From: an uncultured delta proteobacterium
Lineage (GTDB): Bacteria; Desulfobacterota; BSN033; UBA1163
Length of the DNA: 64,000 bases
Assembly (NCBI GenBank): GCA_963708295.1
Contig: CAVPSJ010000016.1
Coordinates: forward strand, 32,001 to 96,000
Direction: 5' to 3'
Under the pieces are notes generated by a model, which had not been told where the DNA came from, did not search any database, and worked only from the letters and a program-made list of their open reading frames with translations. This document shows positions 26,624 through 47,180 of the stretch, piece by piece. The first letter of the stretch is position 1. The number at the start of each line of letters is the position of its first letter. The translations under genes were made by a program, and so were the position numbers.

Positions 26624-27091
26624 AGATACCTCCTCGGGGAAAAGTCCATTCAAGATTCGTTAGGTGACGCCAATATAGCAAAGGAGAGTCTGTGCGTCAA
26701 TAATCAAACACTCGTAGCCCGAGAGATGAGACCGGGGGAGATCTGGGAATGAGATGGTAAAGACCGTTTACAGTGTTTCGAAAGACTCGAGAAGAGGGCT
26801 TCGAAATTGCCGATTTCCAACTTCGAGCCTTCCGGCAATAACGGGAAATGAGGGAGAGGAGGACGAACGGTCGGCCGTTTTTTTACCTACGAGGAGGACA
26901 CTGGGGATGGTAAGATTTTAATGAATGGCAACTGTGAAGGGCTTAAGTCGTGCAGTGAAAGAAGCCGATGCAATTAAGTGAGAGGGAGATTATCTTTGCT
27001 CTTGCAAACGCAGGTCCTCGGTGATAATGTTACCTGTAACCGTGAGCCTAAGAAGGATGTGCTTTGATGAAGGAACGGTCTTTCGGGAGGA

Positions 27092-27562
27092 ATGAAGTTG
27101 GAGCGTCTTTGTGACTGGTATATTCGCCACGCAAAGCTAATCGGTGCATTTTACTGCTGGATTCCCACGCTCGCCTGGTTCGGAGCGACGATGTTCTTTG
27201 TCTCGTTCCGGGAAGTCTACTTCCTCCGGCTGGCCCTTTCTCTCCTCTTGGGTGGTTGGATTGCGGCCCGGATCAATGATTATGGTGTTCGCCTCTGGTT
27301 GATCAAACACCGATCCCAAGAAGGCCCGGGAACCGTCGTTGACGGTATTCTCATTGGAGCAGGTGTTGGAATGGGGACAACCTTTTTGCCACCGCTCACA
27401 TCATTGATAGCTACCCATCATCCAGAGGAGGCGAAGCTTTTGATCATTCTATCATGGTCGGCAGGAATTGTTTTTGGAGGTCTGATTGGAGGTATGCTGG
27501 CTTGGATTGGCCGAAAGTATCTCGATCATGCCTCCGTTGCCACGGAGGAGAGTCAAAGGTGA
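27092..27562 (+). CDS. Hypothetical 4-TM membrane protein, first gene of the biosynthetic operon
   Basis: GGGAGG RBS, four hydrophobic stretches, stop overlaps the next start (GTGA). Confidence 0.7.
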
Positions 27563-28033
27563 GATTTCTTCTCATCGATCGGATCACTGAATGGGAACCC
27601 GGGAAACGTGCCTGTGCCGTGAAAAATGTTGCTCTCAGTGAAGATTTCTTCGACGACCACTTTCCCACTGAAGCCGATCATGCCAGCGGTTCTGATCATC
27701 GAGGGGATGGCGCAACTTTCTGGCTTGCTTATTGAGGAAGGGGTACGCAAGGAGTCGAGGCGGAATGTGAAGGCCCTGATGAGCATCATTGAAAAGGCAA
27801 AGTTTCGGCGACCGGTTTATCCTGGAGACAAGCTTGTCTATGATGCGGAGATCGGTTCGGTTAACGAACTCGGAGGCAGAGCGAACGTGAAGGCTCGTGT
27901 CGACGGAGAATTGGTCACGGAGTGCGGCTTTGTCTTTACATTTCACGAATTCCATCATCCCCAGCTCGAATCCCGACGGTCTGAAATTCTCTCCCTCTGG
28001 CTGAAGGGGCACCATTCCCATGGGACCGAATGA
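27559..28033 (+). CDS. FabZ-like 3-hydroxyacyl-ACP dehydratase (frameshift near 27667)
   Basis: RFLLIDRI...KNV...FFDDHFP joined across +1 base to [14 protein letters not shown]...[10 protein letters not shown]; catalytic His/Glu present. Confidence 0.85.
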
Positions 28034-28975
28034 AGTCGTCATCACCGGTATGGGAATGATTACCCCCCTTGGCGCGACGTTCGCTGAATGTGCTCGGGCA
28101 TGGCGCGAAGGACGATCGGCAGTCCGCCAACCCCTGCCGGAGTTGAATGGCACCCCTCTCGAGGGTGTCGGCGTCCCACCTCTTCCGGACATTAAAGCAG
28201 CTGAGCGCTTAGGCAGTCGTCGGATGCTCAAATACATGTCCCATGCCGCGGTTCTTGGCTGTCTGGCAGGCCGAGAGGCTCTTGAAAATGCCTCTGTAAA
28301 AGCCCGGTTTTCCCCAGAACGGGTAGGACTCTACGCTGGAACTGGGCTGGCGACTGCCGATATCGATGAAGTCAAGGCGATGGTCGAAGCTTCCATTGAT
28401 GAAGGAGGGCAGTTTTCTTGTCGGCTCCTGGGTGAACATGGTCTGGCAGCGACAAACCCGCTTCTCTCCTTCAAGATATTGGCCAACATGCCTCCCTGCC
28501 TGATTTCGATCATCGAATGTATTAAGGGGCCGAACCTTGTCTTCACTCCCTGGGAAGGACAGACGGGTGCAGCCCTTGTCGAAGCATGGAAGGCTGTGGC
28601 CAGCGGAGAGGTCGACTGTGCCCTTGCTGGTGCTGCAGACAACGCGGCTCATCCGGCAACTTTCGTCTATCTCTACCATGCCGGCCTTCTTAGAGGTGAG
28701 GAATATCCTGCTTCGGGTGCCGCTTATTTCGTCTTCGAGAGACGGGAGACTGCTGAGAGGGACGGCAAAAGGATCCACGGTGAAGATCGAACATATTTCA
28801 CTGACCCCTTCTGATGGCAGGAGTGGTCGACCCACTTTCGGAACGTCTTGGCCGGACCTTCGCTGCTGCTCCGGCCATCCTCCTGGGCTTTAATTGCGCG
28901 CAAAGGAAAAGCGAACTCTCCATCTGCGGGGTCGACCAGCAGAGGTTCGAGGTGAGGTTGGAGTTTTTCGTATGA
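28020..28975 (+). CDS. Truncated ketosynthase-fold protein lacking the catalytic Cys (chain-length-factor-like); frameshifted near 28780-28900, 3' end approximate
   Basis: VVITGMGMITPLG, RVGLYAGTG, LANMPPCLISI..IKGPN; TPWEGQT where active KSs have TACxxS/G. Confidence 0.7.
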
Positions 28976-30211
28976 GGAGAGTTGCCATCACCGGGTTTGG
29001 CGTGGTTTCACCCATCGGTGTGGGTAGGGAAAGCTTCTGGGATTCTCTGGCTCGAGGGGTGAGCGGAATTTCTCCGATCACGCATTTCGATGCTACGACT
29101 TTTGAGGTCCAACTGGCGGGGGAGGTGAAGGAAGCATTGGTCGTGCCTGAACCCGTTGAAGAGGTATCGAAAGAAGACCCAAAGGTCGGGTTTGCCTATT
29201 GGGCCTGCGTCGAGGCCCTCTCTCAGGCAGGGATCGCCAGGTTCGATGGAGAGAACGCTTCTTCATGTCGGTACGAGCCTTGAGATCTTCGATCTGAGCA
29301 AAGTCATCTATGATGGAAAGCCCGACTTTAAAACAGTTGCAACAAACATTCTAAAAGGAATAAGCCCTCCTTTGCAGACGCCCCTCGATCAGGCCTCTGG
29401 CTTGCTGATGCGGGAGTTCGGACGCCCTGGGCAGTCCTTGACAAACTGTTCTGCGTGTGCTGCTGGCGCTCAGGCGATTGGACATGGCTTCCATGCGATT
29501 CGCTCAGGCTATTTCGAACGGGCTGTTTGCGGTGGCTTCGATTCGATGATCAATCCCTTGGGGATCGGCGGGTTCCAACTCTTGGGGGCTTTAACCACTG
29601 ACAATCGGCAAGGAGCGCGTGCGTGTCGTCCTTTCGATTCATCACGCAAGGGCACCGTCCTCGGCGAAGGGGCGGCCATGTTTGTCCTCGAGCCTTTGGA
29701 AAAAGCCAGGGCTGAAGGGAAGGAGATTCTTGGAGAAATGGTGGGTTATGGTTCAACGCTCGATGCTTACAGCCTGAGCGCTCCTGATCCGGAGGGAGAC
29801 GGTGCGACAAGAACGATGTTCATGGCTTTAAAGGACGCGGGAATCCCTCCTTCAGAGGTGCACCATATTAACACCCACGGCACAGGAACCCAACTGAACG
29901 ATGAGGTAGAGGCCAAGGCCATCCGAAGGGTGTTTGCTAAAACCTGGGAGAAGATTCCTGTGACTGCCACCAAGTCGATGACAGGCCATCTCATTGCAGC
30001 AGCCGGTCCTATTGAATTGGGAGCATGCCTTTTCACTCTCTTACGGAGAGTTGTACCGCCTAATGTTTCGTTGGAGCGTGTGGCGCAAGGTTGCGAACTC
30101 CATCATGTGGCGGAGCCTGGAATTCCATTCGAGGGGGAATACGTTCTTACCAATTCGTTTGGATTTGGTGGTCAGAACGCTTCGCTGGTATTGAGGGGGT
30201 ACGGTGGCTGA
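28972..30211 (+). CDS. fabF: Beta-ketoacyl-ACP synthase II-like (frameshift near 29250)
   Basis: MRRVAITGFGVVSPIG; CSACAAG, HGTGT and KSMTGHLIAAAG catalytic triad motifs; NSFGFGGQN. Confidence 0.88.
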
Positions 30212-30950
30212 GCAAATAAGACGTATCGCTCTCATTGCAGGAGGAAGTGGTGCCATCGGCTCTGCAGTCGCCAAGAGGCTGGCTTCGGATGGCGTTAGGG
30301 TCTTTGTGGGCTTCTACAAGAATCGCGAAGCGGCTGAGACTGGAGTTTCCAAAATTGCTGCCGCCGGCGGCAATGGAGAGGCAATTCATCTCGATATCAC
30401 CTCCTCTTCTGAGTCCGAGGAGGTGTGTCAGCACATCTTCAGCGGTTGCGGAAGACTGGATATTCTCGTCAACTGTGCTGCCATTAATATGGAGGCACCT
30501 GCATTGGGAATCGAGGACGAAGCATGGAATGGCGTGATGGAGGTCAACTTGACAGGAGCATTCCGTCTCTGCCGGGCAGCCGCGAAATATATGATGCTCA
30601 ATCGCTGGGGCCGGATCATCAACGTCTCTTCCGTTTCAAGCGGGTTCGGTGGCCGCGGCCAGATGAACTATGCCGCCAGCAAGGCAGGTCTTGAAAGCAT
30701 GACACGCGTCCTGGCCTTGGAACTGGGCCGAAAAGGGATCCTGGCCAACTGCGTGGCACCGGGGGTGATCGAGACGAAGATGTCAGAGCGGATCCGCCAG
30801 GCCCATAAAGGGGCACTGGTTGAAGCGATCGCGGTTCGACGTTTCGGCCAACCTGAGGAAGTTGCAAAGGTTGTGGCTTTTATTGCCTCTGATGCCTCAG
30901 CCTATGTCACGGGACAGATCATTCGCGTGGATGGAGGAATGGGCTTGTGA
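30204..30950 (+). CDS. fabG: 3-oxoacyl-ACP reductase (SDR)
   Basis: GGSGAIG, VNCA, GQMNYAASK, APGVIET and VDGG motifs. Confidence 0.88.
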   Translation: MAEQIRRIALIAGGSGAIGSAVAKRLASDGVRVFVGFYKNREAAETGVSKIAAAGGNGEAIHLDITSSSESEEVCQHIFSGCGRLDILVNCAAINMEAPALGIEDEAWNGVMEVNLTGAFRLCRAAAKYMMLNRWGRIINVSSVSSGFGGRGQMNYAASKAGLESMTRVLALELGRKGILANCVAPGVIETKMSERIRQAHKGALVEAIAVRRFGQPEEVAKVVAFIASDASAYVTGQIIRVDGGMGL

Positions 30951-31564
30951 ATCTGACCAACGACTTTCTCCAATTCGTCCGAAGCCGTCGAAGTATCAGG
31001 AAATTCCGAAAGGGTCCTCTCCCGAGGGAAGCTCTTCACCACATGATCGAGGCAGCTAGCTGGGCTCCCTCAGCCAGCAATCGACAGGACTGGGAGTTTA
31101 CCACCATCACTTCCCCCACCATGAAGAAGAGAATGGAAGATATCGTTCGGAGCCGCTGGAAGTTGATCCTCGACAAGAGCCAAACAGGAGCAATCCAGGA
31201 GGAGTTGGAGAAGTATGCGAAGAATTTCGACTGGTTTTCCCATGCCCCCGTGCTTATGGTCGTTTCCGCCAAGAGGCCAGAGGCCTTTCTTTCCAGCCTA
31301 TTGGGTGAAGCAGCTGAGGATGTGGCAGGGACAGTGATCTCTGCGGCCATGGCCGCTCAGAATCTGATGCTGGCGGCCCATGCCATGGGGATCGGAAGCT
31401 GTTGCATTACGGGACCTTTAGCAGCACAAGAGGCTCTGAAGGAGCTTCTCGGGTTCAGCCAGCGGAGGAAAATTGTCTGCCTCGTTGCCCTGGGCTATCC
31501 AGCCGAGGAGCCAGAAGCCCCTCTCCGCAAGGCTGTGGAGAAGATTGCGAGATACATCGAATGA
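30947..31564 (+). CDS. Nitroreductase-family flavoprotein
   Basis: RRSIRKF, APSASNRQDW, AAQNLMLAAHAMGIGSC and LGYP. Confidence 0.9.
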   Translation: MNLTNDFLQFVRSRRSIRKFRKGPLPREALHHMIEAASWAPSASNRQDWEFTTITSPTMKKRMEDIVRSRWKLILDKSQTGAIQEELEKYAKNFDWFSHAPVLMVVSAKRPEAFLSSLLGEAAEDVAGTVISAAMAAQNLMLAAHAMGIGSCCITGPLAAQEALKELLGFSQRRKIVCLVALGYPAEEPEAPLRKAVEKIARYIE

Positions 31565-31959
31565 ACCGGGATGAGGTCGTTCGAGGCGTTTGTGAGTGTG
31601 TCGCTGCTGTCGTGGATGCGGATCCGTCCAACGTTCACGAAGGCCACCGCATTCTTGAAGATCTTGGAGCCGATTCACTGGACCTGCTTGATCTCGTCTT
31701 TCATCTTGAGCAGAGATTCAAAATTAAAATCTCACCGCGCGATATTGAGCGCCGGGCCCAGAAGGAGCTCGGGAGAATCCCGCTCGAAGTGGACGGAGTA
31801 TATACTCCCGAAGCCATCGAGCAGTTGAGAAGGGCCATGCCCGAGGTGCCGCGGGAAGAACTTTCGGAAGGACTCCGCTCGGCAGATCTTCCAAGAAGCT
31901 TTCGCGTGGCGACCTTCGTTCGTCTGGTCGCCCGTCTCATGGAGGAACAGTATGGATAG
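31561..31959 (+). CDS. Extended acyl carrier protein (132 aa)
   Basis: DLGADSLDLLDLVFHLEQRFKIKI phosphopantetheine-Ser motif, then a ~50-aa insertion before FRVATFVRLV. Confidence 0.85.
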   Translation: MNRDEVVRGVCECVAAVVDADPSNVHEGHRILEDLGADSLDLLDLVFHLEQRFKIKISPRDIERRAQKELGRIPLEVDGVYTPEAIEQLRRAMPEVPREELSEGLRSADLPRSFRVATFVRLVARLMEEQYG

Positions 31960-32665
31960 TGTGGCACTGGTGACTGGAGGCAGCGGCGCAGTGGGAGGGG
32001 CCATCGTCCGGCGCTTTTCGCAGGACGGATTTAAAGTGGCCTTCACCTTCCATCATCGCCAGGAACGGGCGGAGCAGCTTCAGAAAGAAACCGGTGCCTT
32101 CGGGTTCCAGGGAGATCTGCTAGATCGGGAACAGGTCAGGGAGATTGTGGAAAAAGTTCTTGAGACCTTCGGGCACATCGACGTCCTCGTCAACAATGCG
32201 GGCCTGACACAGGTGATGCCCTTTGCTTTGATCGAAGAGGAGGATTGGGATCAGATCCTCACGGCCAATCTGAAGACCATGTTCCTGGTCACCAAGGAGG
32301 TCGTCCGGTCAATGATCAAACGCAGGAGAGGAGTGGTGATCAATATCGGTTCCCTAGCAGGGCACCGGCTTCTCGATGTTCCCGTTCATTATGCCACAGC
32401 CAAGGCGGGGGTCAGTGGCTTTACCTTGTCGCTGGCCAAAGAGCTTTCTCGTTACAATATTCGGGTGAACGAGGTGGTGCCGGGTCTCCTTTCAAAAGGC
32501 ATTGGGGAATTGGTCCCCGAGAAAGAAAGAGCCGAATACTTGAGGTATTGTGCGGCAGGGCGTCCGGGTGAGCCGGAGGAGGTTGCAGATTTAGTGGCTT
32601 TCCTCGCAAGCGAAAAAGCACGATATATCAACGCGCAGCCCGTGTTTGTCGACGGGGGAATCTGA
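31952..32665 (+). CDS. Second FabG-like SDR
   Basis: TGGSGAVG, VNNAG, YATAK and VDGG. Confidence 0.88.
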   Translation: MDSVALVTGGSGAVGGAIVRRFSQDGFKVAFTFHHRQERAEQLQKETGAFGFQGDLLDREQVREIVEKVLETFGHIDVLVNNAGLTQVMPFALIEEEDWDQILTANLKTMFLVTKEVVRSMIKRRRGVVINIGSLAGHRLLDVPVHYATAKAGVSGFTLSLAKELSRYNIRVNEVVPGLLSKGIGELVPEKERAEYLRYCAAGRPGEPEEVADLVAFLASEKARYINAQPVFVDGGI

Positions 32666-32666
32666 A

Positions 32667-33110
32667 ATGCGCTGGAGATTCGTGGATAGAATGGAGGCCT
32701 TTGAGCCCTGGACCTTCTTGAGGGGTCGAAAGTCGATTTCTCTTGAAGAGTATTGTCTGCTCGACGCCTTGGGTCGAAAAGGTGTGTTTCCCGAGACCCT
32801 GGCTCTTGAAAGCTGCACTCACCTCGGACGATGGCTCGTCATGAAAAGTTCCGATTTCCTTAAGATCGGCCTTCTTTCCGAGGTTCGTGAGTTTTCTTTT
32901 GCGAATGAGTGTGGCATGGGACAATCTCTGGAGATGACAGTGCGTGTGCAGAAAAAAGAAGAGGGTTCCATCGAAGCAGCATGTGAGGCAACGGCGGAAG
33001 GGAGACCCATCTGCCGGGGAGTCCTGATTCTCGCCTTTAGGGAGCTTGGGGAACTCGTCGATCCTGAAACGATGAGAGCCACGTGGCAGGAACTTTATGT
33101 CAAGACTTGA
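32667..33110 (+). CDS. FabZ-like hotdog protein lacking the catalytic HFP motif
   Basis: MRWRFVDR..GRKSISLEE..VFPETLALES follows the FabZ layout but has no His-Phe-Pro. Confidence 0.7.
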   Translation: MRWRFVDRMEAFEPWTFLRGRKSISLEEYCLLDALGRKGVFPETLALESCTHLGRWLVMKSSDFLKIGLLSEVREFSFANECGMGQSLEMTVRVQKKEEGSIEAACEATAEGRPICRGVLILAFRELGELVDPETMRATWQELYVKT

Positions 33111-34509
33111 CGAGCGGGCGTACACCTATTTTTCGACGGTTCGATCCATGTGCCGCTCTTGCCGGGCGGTCGTTCCTGCCCGGGTCTTTTTCCAGGAAGG
33201 AAAGGTCTGGCAGCAGAACCTCTGCCCTTGCGGCAACAGCCAGCCGGCATTGATCGCAGCGGACAAGGATTGGTATCTGGAAAATATCCTGAGGCCCATC
33301 TCCGATCGCTCTCCGCTCAAGTTATCACACCCGCTGAAGAATGGATGCCCTCATGATTGCGGACCGTGCGCATGGCATGCCACACCCTGCCAGCTTCCTG
33401 TAATTTCGGTGACGAACGCCTGCAACCTGGGCTGCCCCATCTGTTTTACCTACAATCGTCCCGACCGGACCTATTTTATGTCCGTGGAGGAAATGGAACG
33501 AACCGTTGATTGGATCATTGCATCCTCCGATCGAGTCGATTTGATCAATATCACGGGGGGGGAACCGACCCTCCACCCTCGAATCCTCGACCTCCTGCGC
33601 TGCTGCAAGCGGCCTGAGATCGGCCGGATCACGATGAACTCCAATGGTCTCCGCCTCGCAGAAGATCCCGACCTTTGCGAACAACTGGCCGCGTTAGGTG
33701 CCTATGTCATCCTCTCCTTCAATACCTTCGATCCCAAGACAGCCCTCCTTCTTCATGGAAAGGATGTTGTGGAAGAGAAGCTTCAGGCCATTGAAAACCT
33801 CACCCGGGCAGGGGTCAAGATAACCCTTCTTTACGTGATGATGCGCGATACGAATGAGAATGCCCTTGCGGGGATCCTTGATTTGATAAGGACCAACGAT
33901 CAGATCTTGAGCCTCACGGTTCAGACCATGACCTATACGGGCCAGGGGGGTGGCTATTGGCCCCTTCGTCAACCTATCCCCGTCGATGAGGCGGCACGCA
34001 TGGTGTGCCAGCAGTCCGGTGGTGCATTTGTCTTCTCGGATTTCCTCCCGCGACCGTCGAGCCATCCGTTGTGCTATCTGACATGTTATGTGCTCAAGTC
34101 AGGGCGGACCTTTCTGCCCTTTGCAAGGTTCGCTCCCGCCGAGAAGATCCTTTCCCTCATGAAAGACTCCTATCTGATCCGCCTTGGCGACGAGGAGGAT
34201 TTTTTCAGGGAGGCCATCAACCGGCTCTATTCGGAGGGGAAAACAGAGCCCTTGAAACTATTTCGGGAATTGATCGAAGCGCTCTATCCTCGCAACCGGG
34301 ACATCAGCATCTTTGAGCGTCAGCGGCTTGCGGAGTCGTCGGTTCGTACCATTTACATTCATGCCCATATGGATGAGGACACCTTCGACTGCTCCCGTGC
34401 CATGCTCTGTCCGGACCTCGTGCCGGCAGAACCGGGCAGGCTGATCCCGGCCTGCACGTATAACCTTTTCTACCGGATGAAGGATGAGAGGTTTTATGTT
34501 AACCGATAA
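33097..34509 (+). CDS. Radical SAM enzyme, tetraether synthase (Tes/GDGT-MAS, MJ0619)-like, paralog 1
   Basis: SMCRSC...CPC N-terminal site; GCPHDCGPCAWH; CNLGCPIC; TGGEPTLHP; SHPLC; HMDEDTFD..R...C...GRLIPACTYN. Confidence 0.8.
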   Translation: MSRLDERAYTYFSTVRSMCRSCRAVVPARVFFQEGKVWQQNLCPCGNSQPALIAADKDWYLENILRPISDRSPLKLSHPLKNGCPHDCGPCAWHATPCQLPVISVTNACNLGCPICFTYNRPDRTYFMSVEEMERTVDWIIASSDRVDLINITGGEPTLHPRILDLLRCCKRPEIGRITMNSNGLRLAEDPDLCEQLAALGAYVILSFNTFDPKTALLLHGKDVVEEKLQAIENLTRAGVKITLLYVMMRDTNENALAGILDLIRTNDQILSLTVQTMTYTGQGGGYWPLRQPIPVDEAARMVCQQSGGAFVFSDFLPRPSSHPLCYLTCYVLKSGRTFLPFARFAPAEKILSLMKDSYLIRLGDEEDFFREAINRLYSEGKTEPLKLFRELIEALYPRNRDISIFERQRLAESSVRTIYIHAHMDEDTFDCSRAMLCPDLVPAEPGRLIPACTYNLFYRMKDERFYVNR

Positions 34510-35066
34510 AGATAAAGCGAAGCGGAAAGCAGAGAGGGATGCGCTCCAAACCTACTGCAAAGGCAGCCAGAATCGTCCCTTTGTTCTGGAACGCAACGAT
34601 GCCTATTATGTCTGCGAGGTCCTCTTTCCGTCCATCCTTGACCACATCCGAATCCCCATTCGGTGTCTGATGGTGGGCATCGTGAATGCAGTACCCATTT
34701 CGGCTCTTAAAGCTCTTCTTCTACCGCGTGCTTGGAATGAAGATCGGGAAGGGAGTCTATATCGCTCCTGAGGTATTGATGGATCCGCTCTACCCGTGGC
34801 TGATCGAACTCGAAGATGACTGTTTTCTCGGAATGGGATGCAAGATCTTCACCCATGAGTACACCGCGACCTACTTCAGGATAGGTCGTGTGCGGATCGG
34901 AAGAGGTTCGGTCATCGGAGCCTACTCGATCATACGCTCCGGAGTGACGATTGGAGAAAGAGTGACCGTGGGGTTCAACAGTTACGTCAATAAAGATATT
35001 GGCGATGGCGAGACCGTGGGCGGCGTTCCAGCCAACCCTTTAAGACGGAGTCCGGGAAGAGGATAA
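34496..35066 (+). CDS. Hexapeptide-repeat acyltransferase, YvoF-like (frameshift near 34710)
   Basis: YRVLGMKIGKGV...IFTHEY...RIGRVRIG..SVIGAYS.IRSGVTIG...GGVPA left-handed beta-helix. Confidence 0.8.
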
Positions 35067-36079: not shown

Positions 36080-37098
36080 GGCAGATTTCACAGGAACTCC
36101 ATTACCAGCACCGATCCTTGAGGTTGGGTCTCGCTTTCTTCCGCCGCCGCTTGCTCCATTGCAATCTACAGGTGACTTACCGTTGTAATTTTCACTGTCA
36201 GATCTGCGACTTCTGGAAGGAACCTCACGATCCCTCCGATGAACTGACGGTGGAGCAGATCCAGAGGATTGGCAAAAACCTCAACCGTTTGGGCACCCTG
36301 GTCATCTCCCTTGGCGGAGGTGAGCCACTCATCCGCCAGGATCTCTATCAGGTGATCGCCGTGCTCAATAAAACCAACCATTTCCCAATCCTCATCACGA
36401 ACGGTTGGTTCGTGAATGAAACCATAGCCAAAGACATCTTGCGGGCGGGTCTGCAAGAGATCTCGGTTTCCGTCGACTACGCGGATCCGGCCAAACACGA
36501 TGCCCAACGCGGGCGCGTCGGTGCTTGGGATCGTGCCATCAAAGCGCTTGAGCTGCTCAACCGTTATCGTCCTGACCGCCGTCATCGAGTCCACATGATC
36601 ACGGTGCTGATGGACGACAACCTTGAGGAAATCGAACCCCTCCTCCAGCTCTGTCGAGATCTCGGGGTGACTTACTTCATCAACCTCTATTCCTCCGGCC
36701 GTGGAACAAAACCATGCCGTGCGCCAGACGGAAACGTTAGCGATAAACTCCTGGAGCTCAAAACCAGGTACCCTGAGTTCATCTCGTTGACATCCTACGT
36801 GGGGCAGTTCGATCAAGCGATCGCTGAAGGCGGTATCGGCAACTGCCACGCGGGAACTCTCACGTTTAATATCGGAAGCCGGGGCGAGGTCTCACGGTGT
36901 ATCGATACGATCGACGAGCCGGTTGGGAACATTTTGACGGACGAGATCACAGACCTCCGCGACCGACTTCAAACGGCGCAGGAAAAGGGAAGCTGCGCGC
37001 ATTGTTGGACCTCATGCCGGGGCTCTGTCGAGTCTTTATACAAGCCGCCACGAGTCCGCCAGTTCCGGGAGTTCTGTGTCTCGGTGAAGAGGCATTGA
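36073..37098 (+). CDS. Radical SAM/SPASM protein
   Basis: CNFHCQIC, GGGEP, TNG and HDAQRG; CHAG...GEVSRC...CAHCWTSC. Confidence 0.87.
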   Translation: MLRQISQELHYQHRSLRLGLAFFRRRLLHCNLQVTYRCNFHCQICDFWKEPHDPSDELTVEQIQRIGKNLNRLGTLVISLGGGEPLIRQDLYQVIAVLNKTNHFPILITNGWFVNETIAKDILRAGLQEISVSVDYADPAKHDAQRGRVGAWDRAIKALELLNRYRPDRRHRVHMITVLMDDNLEEIEPLLQLCRDLGVTYFINLYSSGRGTKPCRAPDGNVSDKLLELKTRYPEFISLTSYVGQFDQAIAEGGIGNCHAGTLTFNIGSRGEVSRCIDTIDEPVGNILTDEITDLRDRLQTAQEKGSCAHCWTSCRGSVESLYKPPRVRQFREFCVSVKRH

Positions 37099-38513
37099 TG
37101 GAAACTCTGGGGATGACTCAATCGACCTGCAGCGTCTGCCGCGCCGTCATTCCCGCTAAGATCGTCACGGACGGACAGGAGTGTTTACTTCCATAAGTTC
37201 TGCCACGACCATGGCGAATCCCGCATCTTAATCTTCGGTGATCTTCCTCAATTACCTCCGAACGCTCAGATATGTGAAACCGGCGTGGGAACCCAAGACG
37301 TTCGTGGGCGACGCCAGGGCCAGGTGTCCGGAGGGGTGCGGGTTCTGCGAGCGGCATGAACAGCACCTCTGCATGCCAATCATTGAGATTACGAATCGGT
37401 GTGACCTGGTCTGCCCTGTCTGCATCAATGCGTCAGGCAGAGAATTCGACGGGAACTTCAACTCCATGGGATCTCTCGCTTCATGAGTTCCGCACCTTCT
37501 CGATGTGATCCTTGAAGCAGAGCGCCAGGTCGATGTCCTCAATCTATCAGGCGGTGAGCCGCTTCTTCATCCGCGGCTCCTTGATATGATCGACGAAGCC
37601 CTGTCAAGAAAGGAAATCGTTCGGGTCAGCCTCTCCACCAATGGTCTTCGATTCCGAGACGAACCCCGCCTCCTTCAGGAACTCCACAGGCGTCACGTGG
37701 TCATCTCACTGCAATTTGATGGCTTCAATGAAACGATCTACGAGACCCTTCGCGGAAAACCAATGCTTCGGAAGAAACTTGAGATCCTTGACATGCTGAA
37801 AGATTGTGGGATAACGACGTCGCTGACTATGACCGCTGGCGGAGAGGTGAATGACGACCAGTTCCCCCCAATGCTCGATTATCTCTTCGGACATGACCAT
37901 GTGGTCAGTCTGATGGTGCAACCTGTAGCTTTTGTGGGCCGCGGAGGCGCCATGCCACAATAAGGTCAAACGCCTCACGGTTCCCGATGTCGTCCGCCTC
38001 CTCGAGAAAGCAGGCCATCCAGCCGTCAAGGCAGATGACTTTGTGCCTCTGCCCTGCAGCCATCCCCTCTGCTTCAGCCTGGCCTTCTATCTCATGCTCG
38101 ACAGCGGAGGCGTCGTCTCCGTAAGCAGGCTTACAGATGCCGCAACGCTGATGGATTCTCTCTCGAACCGTGTTGTTTTTGGACTCGATCTGGATGAACA
38201 CGAAAGGCTGAAGCAAATGATCTACGACCTCTGGAGCGGGCCGTCAGGAGCGGTTCCGGAGAACAAGGCGGTCCTCGAGACGCTTCGCAATATCCTCAAA
38301 AAGATGTCCCAGACCTGCTGCGGTCCTTTTAATCCACGACAGGCCTTCACGCTTGCAGAGCGAAAGGTAAAGTCGATCTTCATCCATGCGTTCCAGGATG
38401 CGGAAACCTTTGATCTGACTCGGGTCCGGCGGTGCTGCCAGGCCTATCCGCAGCCCGATGGGAAACTTATTCCTGCTTGTGTCCACAACGTCCTGGGGAG
38501 GGAAAGGCGGTGA
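37098..38513 (+). CDS. Tes/GDGT-MAS-like radical SAM enzyme, paralog 2 (several frameshifts)
   Basis: Joined frames give TQSTCSVC...KFCHDHG; CPEGCGFCERH; CDLVCPVC; SGGEPLLHP; LQFDG; CSHPLC; FQDAETFDLTRVRRCC...DGKLIPACVHN. Confidence 0.78.
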
Positions 38514-38572
38514 AGATCCTTTGGGTCATTTGCCCGAGCTGCTACGCCGGGCATCTTCTGAAGAGGAGAGCG

Positions 38573-40065
38573 ATGATTTTCTATACGCGGAATACCTATC
38601 TCGATCATAACGCGACAACGCCCGTTGCGAAGGAAGTGCGAAGAGCGATGGAACGTGTACTCAAGAAGATCCCCGGAAATGCATCGTCCCTTCACACCCA
38701 TGGACGGACCGCACGCGGGCTGGTGGACCAGGCCCGGAGATCGGTTGCTGCGCTTCTCGGATGCCCACCCGAACAGGTGATCTTTACTTCCGGTGGAACC
38801 GAGGGAAATAATGCAGTGATCAAAGGCGTGTTTGCCGAATCCGGGAAGGGCCATATCATTACATCAAAGATCGAGCACGAATCCGTTCTCGGAGCGTGCG
38901 AACAGGTGGAGAAGATGGGTGGAGAGGTCACCTACCTCTCCGCCGGCAGAGACGGGCTCGTCCGCCTCGAAGATGTGAAGGCCGCCATTCGCCCGGACAC
39001 GATCCTGGTCTCGATCATGCACGGCAATAACGAGACCGGCGCGATTCAGCCAGTCGAGGAGATCGGACGGATCTGCCAAAGTACCGGAATTCCATTTCAT
39101 ACCGATGCCGTTCAGACGTATGGAAAGATCCGGACGAATGTGGATGAACTGGGTTGCGAATTCCTCACGCTGACAGCGCACAAAATCAACGGTCCCAAGG
39201 GAGCAGGGGCCCTCTACTGGCGCGGTAAGACGAAATGGAACCCTCTGGTCTATGGGGGCGACCAGGAACAAAAGCTACGGGCGGGCACGGAAGGCGTTCA
39301 CCAGATCGTGGGTCTGGGTGCGGCAGCGGATTTGGCACGAGGTCGAATGGAACAGGAACTGCCCAGGCTCTGGGAACTTCGGAGACAACTTCTTCAGGGG
39401 CTGAGAAAGATCGTCCCCGATATCCGGGTCAATGAAGCGCCTCCGGACCGGCAGCTTCCTGGGACCATCAATCTTACTTTTCCGGGAAAGGAGGGCGTTC
39501 GAATTCTGGCCGGCCTCGACTGTTATGAGATCAGCGTATCGATCGGGTCAGCTTGCACCGCCGACCGGGTTGAGCCTTCCCACGTGCTCCTGGGAATGGG
39601 ACTGAGTGAGAAGGAGGCCCTTTCGTCGATTCGCATCAGCATGGGGACAACGACAAGACCTGCAGATGTCCGCTACTTGCTGGCAGTCCTTCGAAGAAGT
39701 CCTGAAAGGTGACCCTGCAGGCTTTTCGTACCTTGATCCCCAGCACCTTACCGAAGAGCGAATCCGTTCCGAGAAGACCTTTCTGATCGATCTTCGGTTT
39801 CCCTACGAGCGGATGCTGTCTCCCACCATTCCTGGCGCAGCAGGAGTGGTCGCATATCTATTTTGAGAGATATCTGAAGCGGATACCCTGGGACAAAGAG
39901 GTGATCATGATGTGTGGCACCGGAATCTTTTCCTTCTCGGCGGGATACCGACTTGCCAGAGCGGGTCATCCGGCTGTTCGGGTCGTTTACGGCGGGTATG
40001 CGGCGTGGCACGGCCTTTACCCTGAACTCATTCACCGCTTAAGAGGGGGACCGCCTTCGGGTTAG
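38573..40065 (+). CDS. Cysteine desulfurase (IscS/NifS type) fused to a C-terminal rhodanese domain (two frameshifts near 39690 and 39840)
   Basis: YLDHNATTP, FTSGGTE, HTDAVQ, AHKINGPKG and GSACT; then LIDLR...IPGA...EVIMMCGTG...VYGGYAAW rhodanese motifs ending at TAG 40063-40065. Confidence 0.8.
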
Positions 40066-40123
40066 GGCAACCGCATCGTATCCGCTGGTCAGACGAAACG
40101 ATATCCGGCGGGCCGCTTTTTTC

Positions 40124-40750
40124 CTATACCAGGAATGGAATAAACCTGTATCGCACCCGCTTCATGTATTCCCGATACTCCGGCTGCTGAATGAGAAATC
40201 GCTCTTCAAGGATCGCCCGGTAGACGTAACATGCTGTCGAGATAATGAAAACAAGCACGGTAAAAAGGTTGAAGTGACTCATCAGGAAGCCCACACGCAG
40301 GAGGATATCGGTCGCATACATGGGATGCCTGACGATCCCGTAAAGACCACGCGATTTCAGTCTGCGGAACGCGATCAGGATGCCGAAACTGCGTCCGAGG
40401 TTTAACAGCGTAGCGACGCCGAGCACATTCGCGCAAAAAATGACCACCTGCGAGATCTGCTTTGCCACCTGGGGCCCCGTTGCCGGTTGTCCCATAAACG
40501 CTGCTCCGGAACAGAACGCAATGATCGCAATCGCTTGATGCAAGAGGTTTGTCTGAATCAACTGATGGGGTTTACGAATGAGAAAGATAACGGCGAGCAG
40601 CAGACTTTGAATGGTAAAACTGATTTCCACATACCCGAGCGTCCCCTTAAGATGGTATTGGTAAGTCTGCCAGATCCCCCACCCGGCGAAATTGAGAAAT
40701 AGGTAGATATTAAGAAGGGATTGCCAGTGTTTTTTGAAAAACGCTTCCAA
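40124..40750 (-). CDS. Isoprenylcysteine carboxyl methyltransferase (ICMT/PEMT)-family membrane protein
   Basis: LGRSFGI...GLYGIVRHPMY...RAILEERFL...YREYMKRVRYRFIP, multiple TM segments. Confidence 0.85.
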   Translation of the reverse strand: MEAFFKKHWQSLLNIYLFLNFAGWGIWQTYQYHLKGTLGYVEISFTIQSLLLAVIFLIRKPHQLIQTNLLHQAIAIIAFCSGAAFMGQPATGPQVAKQISQVVIFCANVLGVATLLNLGRSFGILIAFRRLKSRGLYGIVRHPMYATDILLRVGFLMSHFNLFTVLVFIISTACYVYRAILEERFLIQQPEYREYMKRVRYRFIPFLV

Positions 40751-40905
40751 TCGATTTTCGTTCCGATAGGATACCGCAGGCTAAAGCTTGCAGCTACAAA
40801 GAGAATATCACAATACAACGTCCTGAGTCACGCCTGACTGCTTAACCACCCGTTGCATCAATAAAAATCTAGAAACCGCATTTTCATTTCAACCTCAGGG
40901 TTGAA

Positions 40906-41901
40906 TTACGGGATCAGTGGCGACAGCGCATGGGCAAGCCGGATTATTTCAGGGCCATTCAACCAACTTGACGCGGATACATGCGATAGCAGCGATGTCA
41001 ACACCAACCGGTGGTCTTTGTTGCGATGGCACGTCTCAAGTTCAGAGAAAAGGCGTTCTGCCTGCGCCGCCGGAACAACTTGATCGTGCCGGTCGTGAAT
41101 GAGCGTCACCGGACAGTCGAGATGCTCCAGATTGCCAGCGGGGGAAAGTTTCTTGAGCACCTCCGGCTCCTGGAAAACGCTTGAATACTTCCGTATCGAG
41201 GTCATGGAGATAGCGAATCATAAAAACGTCGTTTTTCTTCCAAAGACGCTTCGGAACAATATCGGTCGAGCAGCATTTCGATTTCCTGCCAGACCTCCTG
41301 AGAAAAAGCAACAGCATCCCGTCGCCCATAAAGAAAGACAAGCCGTTGATGGATGGCCTCGTCCCATTCCGTGTCGCTCTGTGGCTCGCGTTCCAGGTTC
41401 AGGGCATATCCTTCCAGAACATCTGATAAGTTATGATACGCGCCGAGCGTGATGACCCACGGAATGTGCTTTGATACTTCGAGGTGACCCGCCACGATGA
41501 GCGCGTAACTTCCGCCAAAACTAAACCCAATCAACCCCACCGGCTGGTGAATCGTGTCGGCGGTGAGGGCCACGACGTTTGCGAGTTCGTCCAGGTCGGA
41601 TGTCTCCCATCGACAGGATGCCAGTCCCCCGAGGGTCGGGACCACACAGGTGGTCCCAAAGTGCGCCGCGGTGCGGGCAAAGTGGATCAGTCGTGGGTCC
41701 TGTCCGCCTTTGAGGGTCACCCCGTGGACAGCAACGCAGGCAGCCAATGTTCTATGTTGATGCTGGTAGACCGACCATGCGCGTCCCCGATGAAGAGCAT
41801 TCCTGATGTTCTACAACCGAGGGATCTGGAGGGCGCTGGTTTCCCCTCCATGCTAACCGCGCCAGAAAAGCGTGCGATTTGATGAGTCTCAATAATCCCA
41901 T
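40906..41901 (-). CDS. Alpha/beta hydrolase (frameshifts near 41790 and 41215)
   Basis: VHG, GFSFGG nucleophile, IHDRHDQVVP and LLSHV across three joined ORFs. Confidence 0.7.
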
Positions 41902-41905
41902 GGGA

Positions 41906-43313
41906 TCAGTGCGTGATGCGTTCTCCGCCGCGATGGACGACATTATACGCGCATGTGGGCATCAGTCTTCCATCCGCGAGCATCGTGCGGCTGATGCACA
42001 TTTTGGCGCGCCCGATATCGAAGTTCAATCCATCCATGTAGGAATGGACGAGCACCACCTTGACCAGGTTTTGACTGCGGGCTTTGAATTCCTCGAGAGA
42101 GAGTGCGCCCGCAACCGGAAATAACATATCAATGAGATGGCGAATCGCCGCCAGTCCCTTTACCGTATCCGGATCCTTCTTCCCGCTGGCCCAAAGTCTA
42201 TTGACCACATCGCGGAAGAGACTCTCAAGTTCGGCGTTCAACACCAAAAGCGCTTTATTCGAGATGAGGGCTTGATAGTCTAGAGGGTCTAAGAACCGTT
42301 TCAGCGGAATGAACCCGCCGTCAGGCAGAGGCAGATGGTAAGCAATCTGCAGACATTCAGGATGCGAGAAGGACACGGGAGAAAAATCCGAAGCCAAAAT
42401 CGTTCCACCGGTTTGCGCCTCCAGGCGGATCAGGACATCCTGGGCGGTGATGCGGTGTTCTCTGCCATGGTCGAAACGGCTGCCTTTGCCTATATAAGCC
42501 ATGGTCGCAATATCCAGCGTGCCAATGGAGGGATCCGTTAGAAACATTTCGTAGAGTTTGCCAAGTTCGTGGTCGTTGATTCCGCCAACGATGGTTGGGC
42601 AAAGTCCGACTTTCGAGCCGGCGGTTTTGAGGACCGTCAGCGCCCGTCTCTTCTCGTCCAAAAGAGCTTTTCCTCTGAGCGTCGAGTAGATGCCGTCCGA
42701 GAAGCCATCCCATTGCAACACGACATAGAGGTTTTCTTTCGCCATTCGGCTGGCAAAGTTAGGATCGCCGGCAATCCGCTGGCCATTGGTGTACACCCAG
42801 ATGTCTTCGAATCCAAACTGTTTGAGCAGTCTCACAAGATCGAAGAAATGAGGGTGCACGGTTGGTTCTCCGCCACCCAACGTCACGATTTGCCCTGGTC
42901 CGGCATAGGCCAGAATGGCTTTTACCATGGATTCCATCTCGGCAATGGATACGAAATGGCCGTGTTTGTCAGGACTTCCAAGACAGATTGGACAATTGAG
43001 ATCACAGGCATTGGTAATCTCAAAGAGGAAGAAGGCTGATTTCTGCCGGTGTCCAGCACATTCTCCGCAGTCCAGAGGACATCCTTTGGCCATGACGGTC
43101 TGCCGGCTCGCCGGCGTAACCGTCTGAGCGGAGAAGGACTGTAAGCTCCGTAACCAATCGTAATCAGCAGGCGATGCGCGTTTTAAAAGAACCGTGATCT
43201 GGACAAAACTTCTCATGATGTACCCCTTGTTCATCCTCAACCAGGTCGGCCGTCAGTAAGCGGTGGCAGACCGGGCAAATACTTGCACGCGACTGATGAA
43301 AAATGCGTTTCAT
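41906..43313 (-). CDS. Tes/GDGT-MAS-like radical SAM enzyme, paralog 3 (frameshift near 43170)
   Basis: ATG 43313 gives MKRIFHQSRASICPVC...KFCPDHG; then GCPLDCGECAGH; CDLNCPIC; GGGEPTVHP; LQWDG; SHPEC; YMDGLNFDIGRAKMC...DGRLMPTCAYN. Confidence 0.8.
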
Positions 43314-43410
43314 TTTCGCCCCTCCAAGAGTTTCTTAACTTTTCAGGGTATGTTATCCCGGATCTTTCATAAGAGTTTATCCATGTCCGTTTTTGCGACT
43401 GGCGGTTATC

Positions 43411-44748
43411 TCACACTCCCGGTTTTTTGATTCGAGCCGGTTTTGCGCGTACCGGCGTCGTGATAGATGTCTGGCACACCCTCAACGGTTCTAACTGAGA
43501 TGAGGTTCTCAGTTGCGCGTAAGTCGAATTCGACTCACACAAATGAAGGTCCACCGCTTCCGAATCCGCTGTTTCGCCGTCAAGGTAGAGGGTATACCCT
43601 CTACGATTCTGTCCAGAATGACTCTCAGACGTCAAGAAGTATTTCAAACTCAGGATGCCGCTTTTACGGACTGCTCTCACAACCTCGTCTTCAGTAAGCC
43701 AATCGCCTCCCAGGTCAAAGCTCCGGCAATCGCGTCCGTGAATTTTTATGACGGGCGGTCTGAGGCTGATGAGAGAAACCACGTCACCGGTTTGATAGTT
43801 CCACAGTCCGCCCGGAGTTGTAACACAGAGCTTATACTTCTGGTTGAGAGCCACGGTTCCAAGGCCTGCGATTTGGCCTTTTCTGTCCATGGGAAGAAAC
43901 GTAAAGAACACTCGTCGATAATTTAGCAGAAATACTCCTGCAGATTGGGGCAGACCATACGTCCCTTCATTCGAGCCATAGACATCCACCACAGTAGCAT
44001 TCGGGAAGGCTGACTTATAAAGGTGGGCTTGGTCTACCGCCCAGTAACCACAATTGAAGACAATTTGCACGTCAGGTAGCACGATGTCTGTGGCGAGGGT
44101 AAAGGCAACGATTTCTATCGGATTGCCGGCAATTACCGTGACCCGGTGACGGAGTGCAAGGTCTGCAAGCCGAGTGAAATTGGGAGGTTCTTCCTGCTCA
44201 GGAAGATCCTTGTAAGTGGGAAGAAACCTGCTCCTGAAGGTTTGTAAATAGGCAAAGGGTGTACCTTCGGCATAGACTGTCCATCGACCCAAGGGCCGTC
44301 CCTTTCTGGGGCCAATATACAATGTCTTGCCATGCTGCCAGGACAGAGAGCCATGCTGCAAGCCGCCAAGGAGCGCCGCGTCGACCGCCGTACTCCGTGT
44401 GCTTCTGAGGATCGCACGACTCAAGGGAATCAGTTTCGGCATAGCCTCCGTTCCTGATGTCATTTCGAAGCACTCGGGTCTGCCCGCAAAGAGCACATCG
44501 TCTTCACCTGCGATGATTGCCTCGATACTCGTTCGGAAATCATCGTAAGATTTTGGCGGCACCCGCTCCAGAAAATCCTGGTTTTTTTGAATCGAGGCAA
44601 AATCGTGCTCCTTGCCGAAGGCTGTTTCTGCGCTCCTCTTCACCAGTCGAAGCAAAAGCTTCTTCTGGGAAACGAGCGGATCAGCATTCAAGAGCTGCCA
44701 CTTCCGTAACGTGGCAAGAGCCAAAAGAAACCGGTTTTCGATAGCCAT
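43411..44748 (-). CDS. GH3-family acyl-adenylate/amide ligase
   Basis: TAFGKEHDF, MTSGT..PKLIP, YGSNEG and TTPGGLWNYQTGDVV GH3 motifs. Confidence 0.8.
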   Translation of the reverse strand: MAIENRFLLALATLRKWQLLNADPLVSQKKLLLRLVKRSAETAFGKEHDFASIQKNQDFLERVPPKSYDDFRTSIEAIIAGEDDVLFAGRPECFEMTSGTEAMPKLIPLSRAILRSTRSTAVDAALLGGLQHGSLSWQHGKTLYIGPRKGRPLGRWTVYAEGTPFAYLQTFRSRFLPTYKDLPEQEEPPNFTRLADLALRHRVTVIAGNPIEIVAFTLATDIVLPDVQIVFNCGYWAVDQAHLYKSAFPNATVVDVYGSNEGTYGLPQSAGVFLLNYRRVFFTFLPMDRKGQIAGLGTVALNQKYKLCVTTPGGLWNYQTGDVVSLISLRPPVIKIHGRDCRSFDLGGDWLTEDEVVRAVRKSGILSLKYFLTSESHSGQNRRGYTLYLDGETADSEAVDLHLCESNSTYAQLRTSSQLEPLRVCQTSITTPVRAKPARIKKPGV

Positions 44749-45370: not shown

Positions 45371-45384
45371 AAGAAACTTTTATC

Positions 45385-45585: not shown

Positions 45586-45624
45586 ATTCATGTCTCTTTC
45601 AAGAGGCTGCGTCGATAGCAAAAT

Positions 45625-46668: not shown

Positions 46669-46692
46669 TGGTTTCCCTCCACCCTTTCTTCA

Positions 46693-46978: not shown

Positions 46979-46999
46979 GAATGGAGAACGTTTCTCTTC

Positions 47000-47178: not shown

Positions 47179-47180
47179 TT

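Follow-up and report, generated by a model that had tools for sequence, protein, structure and literature searches.

Herein, we describe a gene cluster at positions 27092-44748 of a 64,000-nucleotide stretch of bacterial DNA (hereafter the window; contig CAVPSJ010000016.1, positions 32,001 to 96,000 of the forward strand), in which genes of the type II fatty acid synthase (FAS) kind are combined with three radical S-adenosylmethionine (SAM) enzymes related to the archaeal tetraether synthase Tes (GDGT-MAS, MJ0619). As judged from related loci, these genes constitute one co-conserved biosynthetic cluster, the arrangement being far beyond chance because its order recurs in dozens of independent contigs. 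We lean towards regarding it as a functional, horizontally mobile gene cluster for a modified fatty-acyl lipid, including the stepwise mechanism proposed below; from the gene families, the conserved order and the Fe-S ligand pattern of the Tes-like enzymes, which are observed, we infer the remainder. An open reading frame (ORF) listing, Pfam and NCBIfam scans and translations read for motifs recovered all of the gene classes named in a first-pass annotation of this DNA, at or near the positions it had given. The genes are as follows (KS, ketosynthase; CLF, chain length factor; ACP, acyl carrier protein; SDR, short-chain dehydrogenase/reductase).

27092..27562, + strand: mem, membrane protein with four transmembrane segments (hydrophobic segments from the translation; no Pfam or NCBIfam match)
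27559..28033, + strand: FabZ1, 3-hydroxyacyl-ACP dehydratase (PF07977, 1.4e-15; 1-nt indel near 27665)
28020..28814, + strand: KSa, short KS-like protein, Cys-less and CLF-like (PF00109 N-terminal domain only, 1.2e-15)
28969..30211, + strand: KSb, FabF-like ketosynthase of the active type (PF00109 and PF02801; indel at about 29251)
30204..30950, + strand: FabG-type ketoreductase, accessory (adh_short_C2, 4e-62; YAASK motif)
30947..31564, + strand: NTR, nitroreductase-family flavoprotein (PF00881, 6e-40)
31561..31959, + strand: ACP of 132 aa, extended at the C-terminus (NCBIfam ACP models to 3.7e-12, residues 54-117 in the frame of ORF 31402-31959; DSL serine motif)
31952..32665, + strand: SDR, FabG-like ketoreductase, core (adh_short, 1.6e-51; YATAK motif)
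32667..33110, + strand: FabZ2, hotdog protein without the catalytic His (weak FabZ match, 1.1e-8; no Pfam match)
33097..34509, + strand: Tes1, GDGT-MAS/Tes-superfamily radical SAM enzyme, intact, 470 aa (PF04055 and Zn_ribbon_HMPTM)
34484..35066, + strand: AcT, hexapeptide-repeat acetyltransferase (PF00132; indel near 34700-34720)
35066..36079, + strand: rSAM_A, radical SAM enzyme with a five-Cys C-terminal motif (PF04055, 2e-16)
36061..37098, + strand: rSAM_B, radical SAM enzyme with a five-Cys C-terminal motif (PF04055, 4e-25)
37002..38513, + strand: Tes2, Tes-superfamily radical SAM enzyme in at least three frame pieces, start uncertain within 37002-37100 (fragments match TrsS and Tes models)
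38573..40065, + strand: NifS-type cysteine desulfurase-rhodanese fusion (PF00266, 7e-76; NifS 399 bits; indels at about 39694 and 39843)
40124..40750, - strand: ICMT/PEMT-family membrane methyltransferase (PF04191, PF04140)
40906..41901, - strand: alpha/beta hydrolase with several indels (weak Abhydrolase and Peptidase_S9 matches; GFSFGG motif)
41906..43337, - strand: Tes3, Tes-superfamily radical SAM enzyme, upper end approximate (N-terminal Zn-ribbon part in another frame, aligning at 43316-43143)
43411..44748, - strand: GH3-family acyl acid amido synthetase (PF03321, PF23571, PF23572; start 44748 from alignment with the orthologue in metagenome contig L064)

Conservation of the core cluster

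A scan of a genome collection with Tes1 yielded 42 loci, against which all window proteins were searched by tblastn. Counts refer to 25 loci, namely those whose Tes1 orthologue is full-length and at least 55% identical, and for each gene only to those with enough flanking sequence; ten loci that extend 6 kb or more to each side are called well-flanked. The common order is FabZ1-KSa-KSb-(FabG)-(NTR)-ACP-SDR-FabZ2-Tes1-(AcT)-(rSAM_A-rSAM_B)-Tes2. FabZ2 was present in 21/22 loci, SDR in 19/20, ACP in 17/19, NTR in 14/18 (and also in Myxococcota variants) and KSb, KSa and FabZ1 in 15/17 each, and Tes2 followed Tes1 in every locus that could be counted (17/17). Among the accessory genes, AcT was found in seven of the ten well-flanked loci, rSAM_A and rSAM_B in six each and FabG, on the cluster strand, in three. 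The gene set also occurs in slightly different order in a Bacillota metagenome-assembled genome (MAG; L020), and a Myxococcota variant reads FabZ-KS-(CLF)-KS-FabG-NTR-(ACP)-Tes-SDR-SDR with a second Tes gene on the opposite strand. The first-pass annotation had staked its proposal beforehand on the genes being conserved together elsewhere, and the order was kept in 15/17 loci with enough flank.

Integrity of the genes

Within about 18 kb, the copy in the window has at least 11 frame breaks, distributed over FabZ1, KSb, AcT, Tes2 (at least two), the NifS-rhodanese gene (two to three), the hydrolase gene (several) and Tes3, and it lies in a variable region with insertion sequence (IS)-like repeats. 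Both features would suit a decaying or chance neighbourhood, made up of pseudogene remnants or of unrelated adjacent genes, an explanation that we hold to be very improbable on the following grounds. Contigs from four public runs, from relatives about 92-99% identical, cover the whole stretch when aligned to 27000-45000, and they have exactly one base fewer at no fewer than five breaks (29251, 37954, 38564, 39694 and 39843), among the indels listed. At site 29251, in KSb, the base is absent in two contigs of one relative, and across the AcT break a relative's contig aligns over 34609-34762 with 0 mismatches and 1 gap. In L064 (85-91% protein identity) every gene is open (GH3 444 aa, Tes3 476 aa, hydrolase 330 aa, ICMT 208 aa, NifS-rhodanese 496 aa, Tes2 502 aa and AcT 193 aa), and the ORFs are also intact in L069. 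The L064 orthologue of Tes2 aligns to the window in three frames and that of the hydrolase in four pieces, and the rhodanese Cys motif of the NifS fusion lies in a third frame. Gene order, moreover, is kept across phyla. An unrelated aldehyde:ferredoxin oxidoreductase gene of the window (47181-49005, - strand) is likewise split, into overlapping ORFs 47704-49005 and 47181-47825, and fits a genome-wide indel error. Taken from these alignments, the frame breaks are probably assembly indels, and the genes are probably intact in the real organism.

The Tes-like and other radical SAM enzymes

Tes1 aligned with the GDGT-MAS structure PDB 7TOL at an E-value of 2.9e-41 (residues 15-466 to 25-504) and Tes3 at 1.8e-45 in two stretches, and MoaA-type models scored much lower; the large radical SAM enzymes are thus relatives of GDGT-MAS/MJ0619 rather than MoaA-like, in agreement with the first-pass annotation. 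When 87 Tes-like ORFs, taken from the related loci and the window, were aligned, 12 Cys residues proved to be conserved in all groups (C19, C22, C43; C84, C88, C91; C109, C113, C116; C326, C438 and C453 in Tes1 numbering), and the radical SAM motif CX3CX2C (C109, C113, C116) was kept in 87/87 sequences. The architecture of full-length Tes was found, with an N-terminal Cys ribbon, a second CX3CX2C and a C-terminal Cys triad, and the Zn-ribbon PF23545 was matched on Tes1 and on orthologues of Tes3. The assignment of the conserved Cys residues to individual extra metal sites is one that we presume. In a FastTree phylogeny of these 87 sequences, which was midpoint-rooted with no outgroup, the orthologues of Tes1, Tes2 and Tes3 formed separate clades with support of at least 0.95, and most Myxococcota homologues were sister to Tes1. 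For Tes3, about 50 orthologue clusters were obtained at 53-87% identity, mostly 468 aa long.

The curated equivalog cut-offs are 450 bits for Tes (NF045702) and 490 bits for TrsS (NF045646). Tes1 scored 169 bits with Tes and 170 bits with TrsS, Tes3 scored 224.5 bits with TrsS and 177.7 bits with Tes, and fragments of Tes2 reached 58 and 56 bits with Tes. On these model scores, the three proteins are classed as Tes-superfamily members and not as Tes equivalogs. Of the NCBIfam models, that of the TrsS radical SAM (seleno)protein fits Tes3 best, and on Tes1 it draws level with Tes; however, the scores are far below its cut-off, and the frame breaks are indels rather than an in-frame TGA that is conserved. 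An organometal or selenium gene context, as is associated with TrsS, was not seen here.

For the two smaller radical SAM enzymes, the label "SPASM" in the first-pass annotation needs to be narrowed: five C-terminal Cys residues are indeed conserved in both, but there is no match to the Pfam SPASM family (PF13186). In rSAM_A, CX3CX2C and Cys 253, 271, 304, 308 and 312 are conserved among 14 aligned sequences, and in rSAM_B, whose best PDB match is SkfB (3e-13), Cys 262, 280, 312, 315 and 319 among 12. The neighbouring AcT best matched the NCBIfam heptaprenylglyceryl phosphate O-acetyltransferase, at 82 bits vs a cut-off of 300.

Fatty-acid-type enzymes

The ketosynthases follow a type II KS/CLF pattern and are a predicted pair. 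KSb has the Cys-His-His set in CSAC, HGTGT and GH motifs, scores 300 bits with the fabF model on its C-terminal fragment and has FabF proteins as its best PDB matches (1e5m, 1.4e-66), and KSa has no Cys at the aligned active-site position (its L069 orthologue is 382 aa long). FabZ1 begins in frame 3 with MRFLLIDRI...DDHFP, after which the frame shifts; read through the indel, it has the catalytic DDHFP His, as do 10/10 orthologues inspected, the intact ones also having an EGMAQ motif. A dehydratase had been placed here by the first-pass annotation, which holds, with the start now moved from 27626 to GTG 27559. The same annotation had called FabZ2 inactive, and in line with this Val replaces the catalytic His and no His was found at the HFP position in 12/12 aligned orthologues. 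A complex prediction of Tes1 with FabZ2, run without controls, gave a score of 0.00 vs a mark of 0.32 and carries no weight either way. SDR matched the 3-oxoacyl-ACP reductase PDB 2ph3 at 1e-48 and also adjoins Tes-like genes in Myxococcota and Acidobacteriota loci, and both FabG and SDR carry the YxxxK ketoreductase motif. NTR may be the ene-reductase because one of its relatives in the PDB is CLA-ER (4qlx, 2e-7), a fatty-acid enone reductase; this nitroreductase-fold enzyme acts on fatty acids according to the title of that entry. FabI, FabK and FabV were not found among the cluster genes.

The lack of FabI, FabK and FabV, together with two SDRs that both have a ketoreductase motif, might also be expected of a polyene-derived carbocyclic or ladderane-like lipid, in which KS/CLF, ketoreductase and dehydratase make an unsaturated chain that is then cyclised by radical SAM enzymes. 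As described in the available parts of the sources, the anammox ladderane cluster I (amxACP, amxFabZ, amxFabF2/FabFmut, a PDH-like gene and a B12 radical SAM gene) is likewise one operon with a dedicated ACP, FabZ, an active and a dead KS and radical SAM enzymes (PMC10139942, bioRxiv 10.64898/2026.05.19.726425), the KS/CLF pairing here parallels its amxFabF heterodimer (bioRxiv 10.64898/2026.05.19.726425), and "Ladderane-type" clusters with no assigned role have been reported in non-anammox phyla (PMC9902471). However, the phytoene-dehydrogenase-like gene and the B12 radical SAM gene of cluster I were not found by Pfam in 27092-44931, the radical SAM enzymes here are of the Tes superfamily, and the host genome, which is 91.5% complete, gave no match to HZS_alpha, so that by this test the organism is not an anammox bacterium. 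KSb, in addition, is closest to canonical FabF, and the nitroreductase could be the ene-reductase, and we therefore rate a ladderane-like product as highly unlikely.

Arrangement of the genes

The near-continuous overlap of starts and stops on the + strand that the first-pass annotation had described was confirmed at 11 junctions, which overlap or abut. They are mem/FabZ1 (GTGA, 27559-27562), FabZ1/KSa (14 nt), KSb/FabG (8 nt), FabG/NTR (4 nt), NTR/ACP (ATGA, 31561-31564), ACP/SDR (8 nt), SDR/FabZ2 (abutting), FabZ2/Tes1 (14 nt), Tes1/AcT (26 nt), AcT/rSAM_A (1 nt) and rSAM_A/rSAM_B (7-19 nt). The only clear gaps on this strand are those between KSa and KSb (about 154 nt) and between Tes2 and NifS (about 59 nt), rSAM_B/Tes2 being uncertain from indels. 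The gene for mem also has orthologues adjoining the cluster in L001, L008, L010, L013, L016, L069 and L075. A reading of the cluster as one for a peptide made on the ribosome and modified after translation (RiPP) or a lipopeptide was rejected, as no unassigned intergenic gap is large enough for a precursor gene.

The sulfur-transfer partner

A NifS-rhodanese gene or the gene for a membrane protein, here called X, stands beside Tes2 in 10/10 well-flanked loci, X in nine and NifS-rhodanese in one (L030). X, most copies of which have an N-terminal rhodanese domain, is a polytopic membrane protein encoded directly after Tes2 (examples are L002:15387-16349, L015:12831-14153, L003:13047-14420 and L040:13683-15002). 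It has four invariant clustered Cys residues and the invariant motifs GE..C, C-x5-C-x2-C-x7-C and FWEE, and had no Pfam, NCBIfam or named protein-atlas match, its C-terminal domain matching unnamed clusters only; it is absent from the window. The constant presence of a persulfide-supplying partner suggests either a heavy turnover of Fe-S clusters or sulfur that is kept in the product. In L030, a 6-Mb chromosome record, a CrtC/Svf1-type lipocalin resembling carotenoid hydratase is encoded at 13448-14542, between Tes2 and NifS-rhodanese, and is another candidate for lipid-tail tailoring.

LipA and BioB act on ACP- or protein-bound acyl chains. By analogy, the Tes-like enzymes, instead of joining carbons, could leave sulfur in the ACP-bound chain, giving a thiol, a thioether ring, a sulfide-bridged lipid or a lipoate-like cofactor, with NifS-rhodanese or rhodanese-X resupplying the sulfur and the ICMT-family enzyme possibly acting as an S-methyltransferase. 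Besides the partner gene in all ten loci, this possibility draws on the chemistry of GDGT-MAS, which, in the available text of PMC13459092, passes through a C-S(cluster) bond, and on the inclusion of the S-methyltransferase MddA in the ICMT family, the match here being weak (22 bits). On the other hand, NifS may simply supply five or six radical SAM enzymes with their many Fe-S clusters, no NifS or rhodanese match to the queries used was found within 10 kb in the Myxococcota variants, no sulfur-carrier protein was seen, and a Tes relative is not known to retain sulfur in what it makes. Sulfur insertion is thus considered possible, though unlikely.

The GH3-Tes3 module and its neighbours

A metagenome scan with Tes3 yielded 23 loci, which, having been chosen by Tes3, show linkage and not frequency. 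The convergent GH3-Tes3 genes, which the first-pass annotation had counted as part of the system, proved to be linked to the core in two different layouts. The convergent layout of the window is repeated in L064, L065, L068 and L078. In the other layout (L069, L070, L071 and L075), GH3-Tes3 shares the strand of FabZ1-KSa-KSb-NTR-ACP-SDR-FabZ2-Tes1-Tes2 and stands directly upstream of it. On the short contigs L073, L074 and L084, only Tes3 (in L074 with a GH3 fragment) is upstream of the core on that strand. GH3 adjoins Tes3 in 17/17 metagenome loci that retain sequence upstream of Tes3. GH3-Tes3 is nevertheless an accessory module, because it is missing from 10/10 well-flanked loci found with Tes1.

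The GH3 protein has the motifs TSGT, YGSNEG and YQTGD, and its score with the OlsH model (NF052613), for which the cut-off is 620, was 92.5 bits, that of the L064 orthologue being 90 bits. The hydrolase had no informative NCBIfam match. The ICMT-type protein scored 39.5 bits with the NCBIfam isoprenylcysteine O-methyltransferase (cut-off 160), and its gene is found within the operon, between Tes2 and NifS, in L006, L010 and L026. A B12-binding radical SAM gene precedes GH3 in L063, L069-L072, L075 and L076 (L069:7190-8446), and in the closest relatives (L064-L066, L068, L078, L080 and L081) only C-terminal remnants of it are left, which point to recent gene decay; no such remnant was found upstream of GH3 in the window. 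Between Tes3 and FabZ1 in L069 (11385-12023), there is an ORF in which a LexA DNA-binding domain is fused to an IS200-like Y1 transposase domain.

Host genome and horizontal acquisition

The RpoB of the host shares 83-87% identity with proteins that carry the labels Syntrophaceae, Thermodesulfobacteriota, Deltaproteobacteria or Desulfobacterota, which identifies a Thermodesulfobacteriota-like genome as judged from this marker; a Planctomycetota host, as the labels of related loci had suggested, was ruled out by the same result. Positions 1-19162 of the window match a same-genus genome in long blocks at 80-85% nucleotide identity, comparable to the rpoB control (85%), which ruled out a mis-binned contig, and by this comparison the contig is native to the host genome. 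The segments 20000-27090, 44930-52000 and 52000-64000 matched same-genus DNA in short repeats only, and the cluster lies inside a region of at least 45 kb that is unmatched in same-genus DNA. The GC content of the cluster is 54-57% vs about 50% for the genome. Among 400 other sampled genomes of the host phylum, none had a Tes1 orthologue at E <=1e-120, and with Tes3 at 1e-20 distant homologues only were found in 76, the best at 36% identity, and none in 11 same-family genomes. The closest labelled relatives of the cluster are Planctomycetota MAGs (Tes1 identity 60-74%), and further source labels are Sumerlaeota, Deltaproteobacteria and CSSED10-310. Transfer across phyla is indicated, because the host is Thermodesulfobacteriota-like and the nearest labelled relatives are Planctomycetota; on these comparisons, the cluster appears to be horizontally acquired and present in several anaerobic bacterial phyla.

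Several features of the genomic setting were also recorded. Since a tRNA scan and an Rfam gathering scan of the window gave no match, there is no sign in it of a tRNA integration site or a riboswitch. Repeats of 75-125 nt (window 18361-18519, about 47000-47075 and 3038-3129), for which ARAGORN and Rfam gave no tRNA or RNA family, recur many times, at 85-92% identity, in genomes of the same genus and of the same family, and one of them marks the left edge of the non-syntenic region. An IS-like element of about 750 bp at about 55735-56495, with an inverted partial copy at about 60855-61318, has multiple copies in related genomes; it is part of the non-syntenic stretch on the right-hand side of the cluster. 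The host genome has more KS-containing loci, some with tandem KS genes, on contigs C4 (about 228-231 kb, and 211 kb), C15 (about 301-303 kb), C11, C5 and C17, which suggests further FAS-like or polyketide synthase (PKS)-like clusters. Among public sequencing runs, no RNA run was listed and none contains more than 0.12 of the sampled window words.

Comparison with known systems

No cluster with the same gene set was found in the literature, in line with the earlier judgement that it is not a characterised one, and no paper linking a Tes/MJ0619 homologue with KS/ACP genes was found in a search that left subscription papers and supplements outside; members of these clades may appear in the supplementary tables of PMC8941075, PMC11868695 and PMC13159169. 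The known systems below are compared as described in the available parts of their sources. In GDGT-MAS, hydrogen is abstracted from unactivated tail carbons and the radical is held as a C-S bond to an auxiliary cluster, this substrate C-S(cluster) intermediate then giving a C-C bond (PMC13459092). Tes1 and Tes3 resemble it in their homology to 7TOL, the PF23545 ribbon, the radical SAM motif and the extra Cys groups. In contrast to the single archaeal enzyme, there are three deep paralogues here, with scores of 169-178 bits vs the cut-off of 450. They belong to an FAS-like operon that also includes genes for an ACP and for sulfur transfer, and the cluster, whose hosts are bacteria, has no genes for isoprenoid ether lipids.

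Both the bacterial Tes homologues and Mss belong to the radical SAM enzymes, and coupling of fatty-acyl tails in anaerobic bacteria has been either proposed or shown for them (PMC13159169, PMC13274423, PMC8941075). They are described as single genes acting on phospholipids (Mss was compared by description only), and the available text mentions no linkage to a KS/CLF-ACP set, a GH3 ligase or a rhodanese. Bacterial Tes homologues have served as single markers of the potential to make glycerol dialkyl glycerol tetraethers of the branched type (brGDGTs; PMC8941075, PMC11868695, PMC13023045), for which they have been proposed (PMC8941075, PMC11868695), and are reported to make iso-diabolic tetraesters in Acidobacteria (Chen et al. 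2025, as cited in PMC13023045). A canonical membrane-spanning glycerolipid of the iso-diabolic acid or brGDGT kind could accordingly be imagined, in which the FAS genes supply the tails, Tes1 and Tes2 couple these tail to tail within assembled phospholipids and the other radical SAM enzymes add methyls or rings; the B12 radical SAM gene accompanying GH3 in related loci and the origin of the close relatives' contigs, from runs labelled as soil metagenomes, would fit. However, the cluster has no glycerol-lipid, ether-forming (Ger, PlsA, ElbD) or acyltransferase gene, its head-group enzyme is a GH3 amide ligase, and identity to GDGT-MAS is low, with scores far below the Tes cut-off. We regard a glycerolipid product as quite unlikely.

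For the GH3 part, the nearest precedent is the planctomycete ornithine lipid made by OlsH, a GH3 protein, and the alpha/beta hydrolase OlsI, where an adenylating amide ligase likewise shares an operon with an alpha/beta hydrolase (PMC12493201). The systems differ in that the GH3 protein of the window is far below the OlsH cut-off, that a Tes-like radical SAM gene stands between GH3 and the hydrolase, and that OlsI is of the O-acyltransferase type, whereas the hydrolase here has no NCBIfam match above noise.

A proposed pathway

Herein, we propose a stepwise pathway. First, an acyl chain would be built on the cluster's own long ACP, with elongation by KSb/KSa, ketoreduction by SDR (and FabG) and dehydration by FabZ1, NTR being the missing ene-reductase or an electron donor. 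Second, Tes1 and Tes2, an obligate pair of deep GDGT-MAS paralogues, would abstract hydrogen from unactivated chain carbons and form bonds, which may be C-C (a tail-to-tail dimer or a macrocycle, as with Tes) or C-S. NifS-rhodanese would give persulfide sulfur to the auxiliary clusters of the Tes-like enzymes or to the product, and rSAM_A and rSAM_B would carry out further radical tailoring. Third, the alpha/beta hydrolase would release the chain and GH3 would ligate an amine to it, giving an N-acyl amino-acid-type head as OlsH does, the stage at which Tes3 would act; the ICMT-type enzyme would methylate the remaining carboxylate, and the hexapeptide transferase would acetylate a hydroxyl. For this subtype of the cluster, a fatty acid modified in its tail and finished as an N-acyl amino-acid-type lipid is favoured because of the amide chemistry of GH3, with OlsH as precedent, and because the group methylated by ICMT-type enzymes is a carboxylate on a lipidated amino acid (NCBIfam family description). 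A more specific product, of a lipid class so far undescribed and made by a self-contained route, namely a dimeric or macrocyclic membrane-spanning N-acyl amino-acid lipid whose tails come from the private ACP and are bridged by Tes-like C-C or sulfide bonds with sulfur from NifS-rhodanese, is put forward tentatively and seems to us doubtful.

Several observations weigh against the proposed pathway. One locus, L014, has Tes1-Tes2 and an rSAM_A fragment at a contig end, and FAS genes are absent from the 10 kb upstream; in L017, the 7.8 kb upstream contain no KS genes. The GH3-Tes3 module is lacking from the well-flanked Tes1 loci, and Tes1-3 are far from the 450 bits of the Tes model. No thioesterase, acyltransferase or enoyl reductase of known type could be confidently assigned in the cluster, and the window copy would be dead if its frame breaks were real. 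Finally, known Tes and Mss act on complete phospholipids and not on acyl-ACP, as far as the available text of PMC13274423 describes them, so that Tes1-3 may act either on acyl-ACP or on the finished lipid.

Implications

The question of which bacteria, and with which enzymes, make membrane-spanning or bridged lipids in anoxic soils and sediments is addressed by these findings, and palaeoclimate proxies based on brGDGTs are touched by the same issue (PMC11868695, PMC8941075, PMC13023045, PMC13274423, in the parts available). A large and widespread clade of bacterial Tes homologues appears here as a fixed pair or trio in a private fatty-acid line with a sulfur-transfer partner and sometimes GH3, and where brGDGT producers are inferred from counts of Tes homologues, some of the enzymes counted may have a different function. 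A compact set of about ten core genes is thereby defined for anaerobic expression. On the comparisons of sequence and gene order made here, the cluster is real, mobile and widely distributed, and constitutes a variant of radical-SAM lipid tailoring. If a bridged N-acyl amino-acid lipid is indeed its product, Tes-type chemistry would extend beyond glycerol lipids, and a direct enzymatic source that spreads horizontally would exist for some of the "orphan" lipids, bridged or sulfur-bound, that occur in anoxic soils and sediments.

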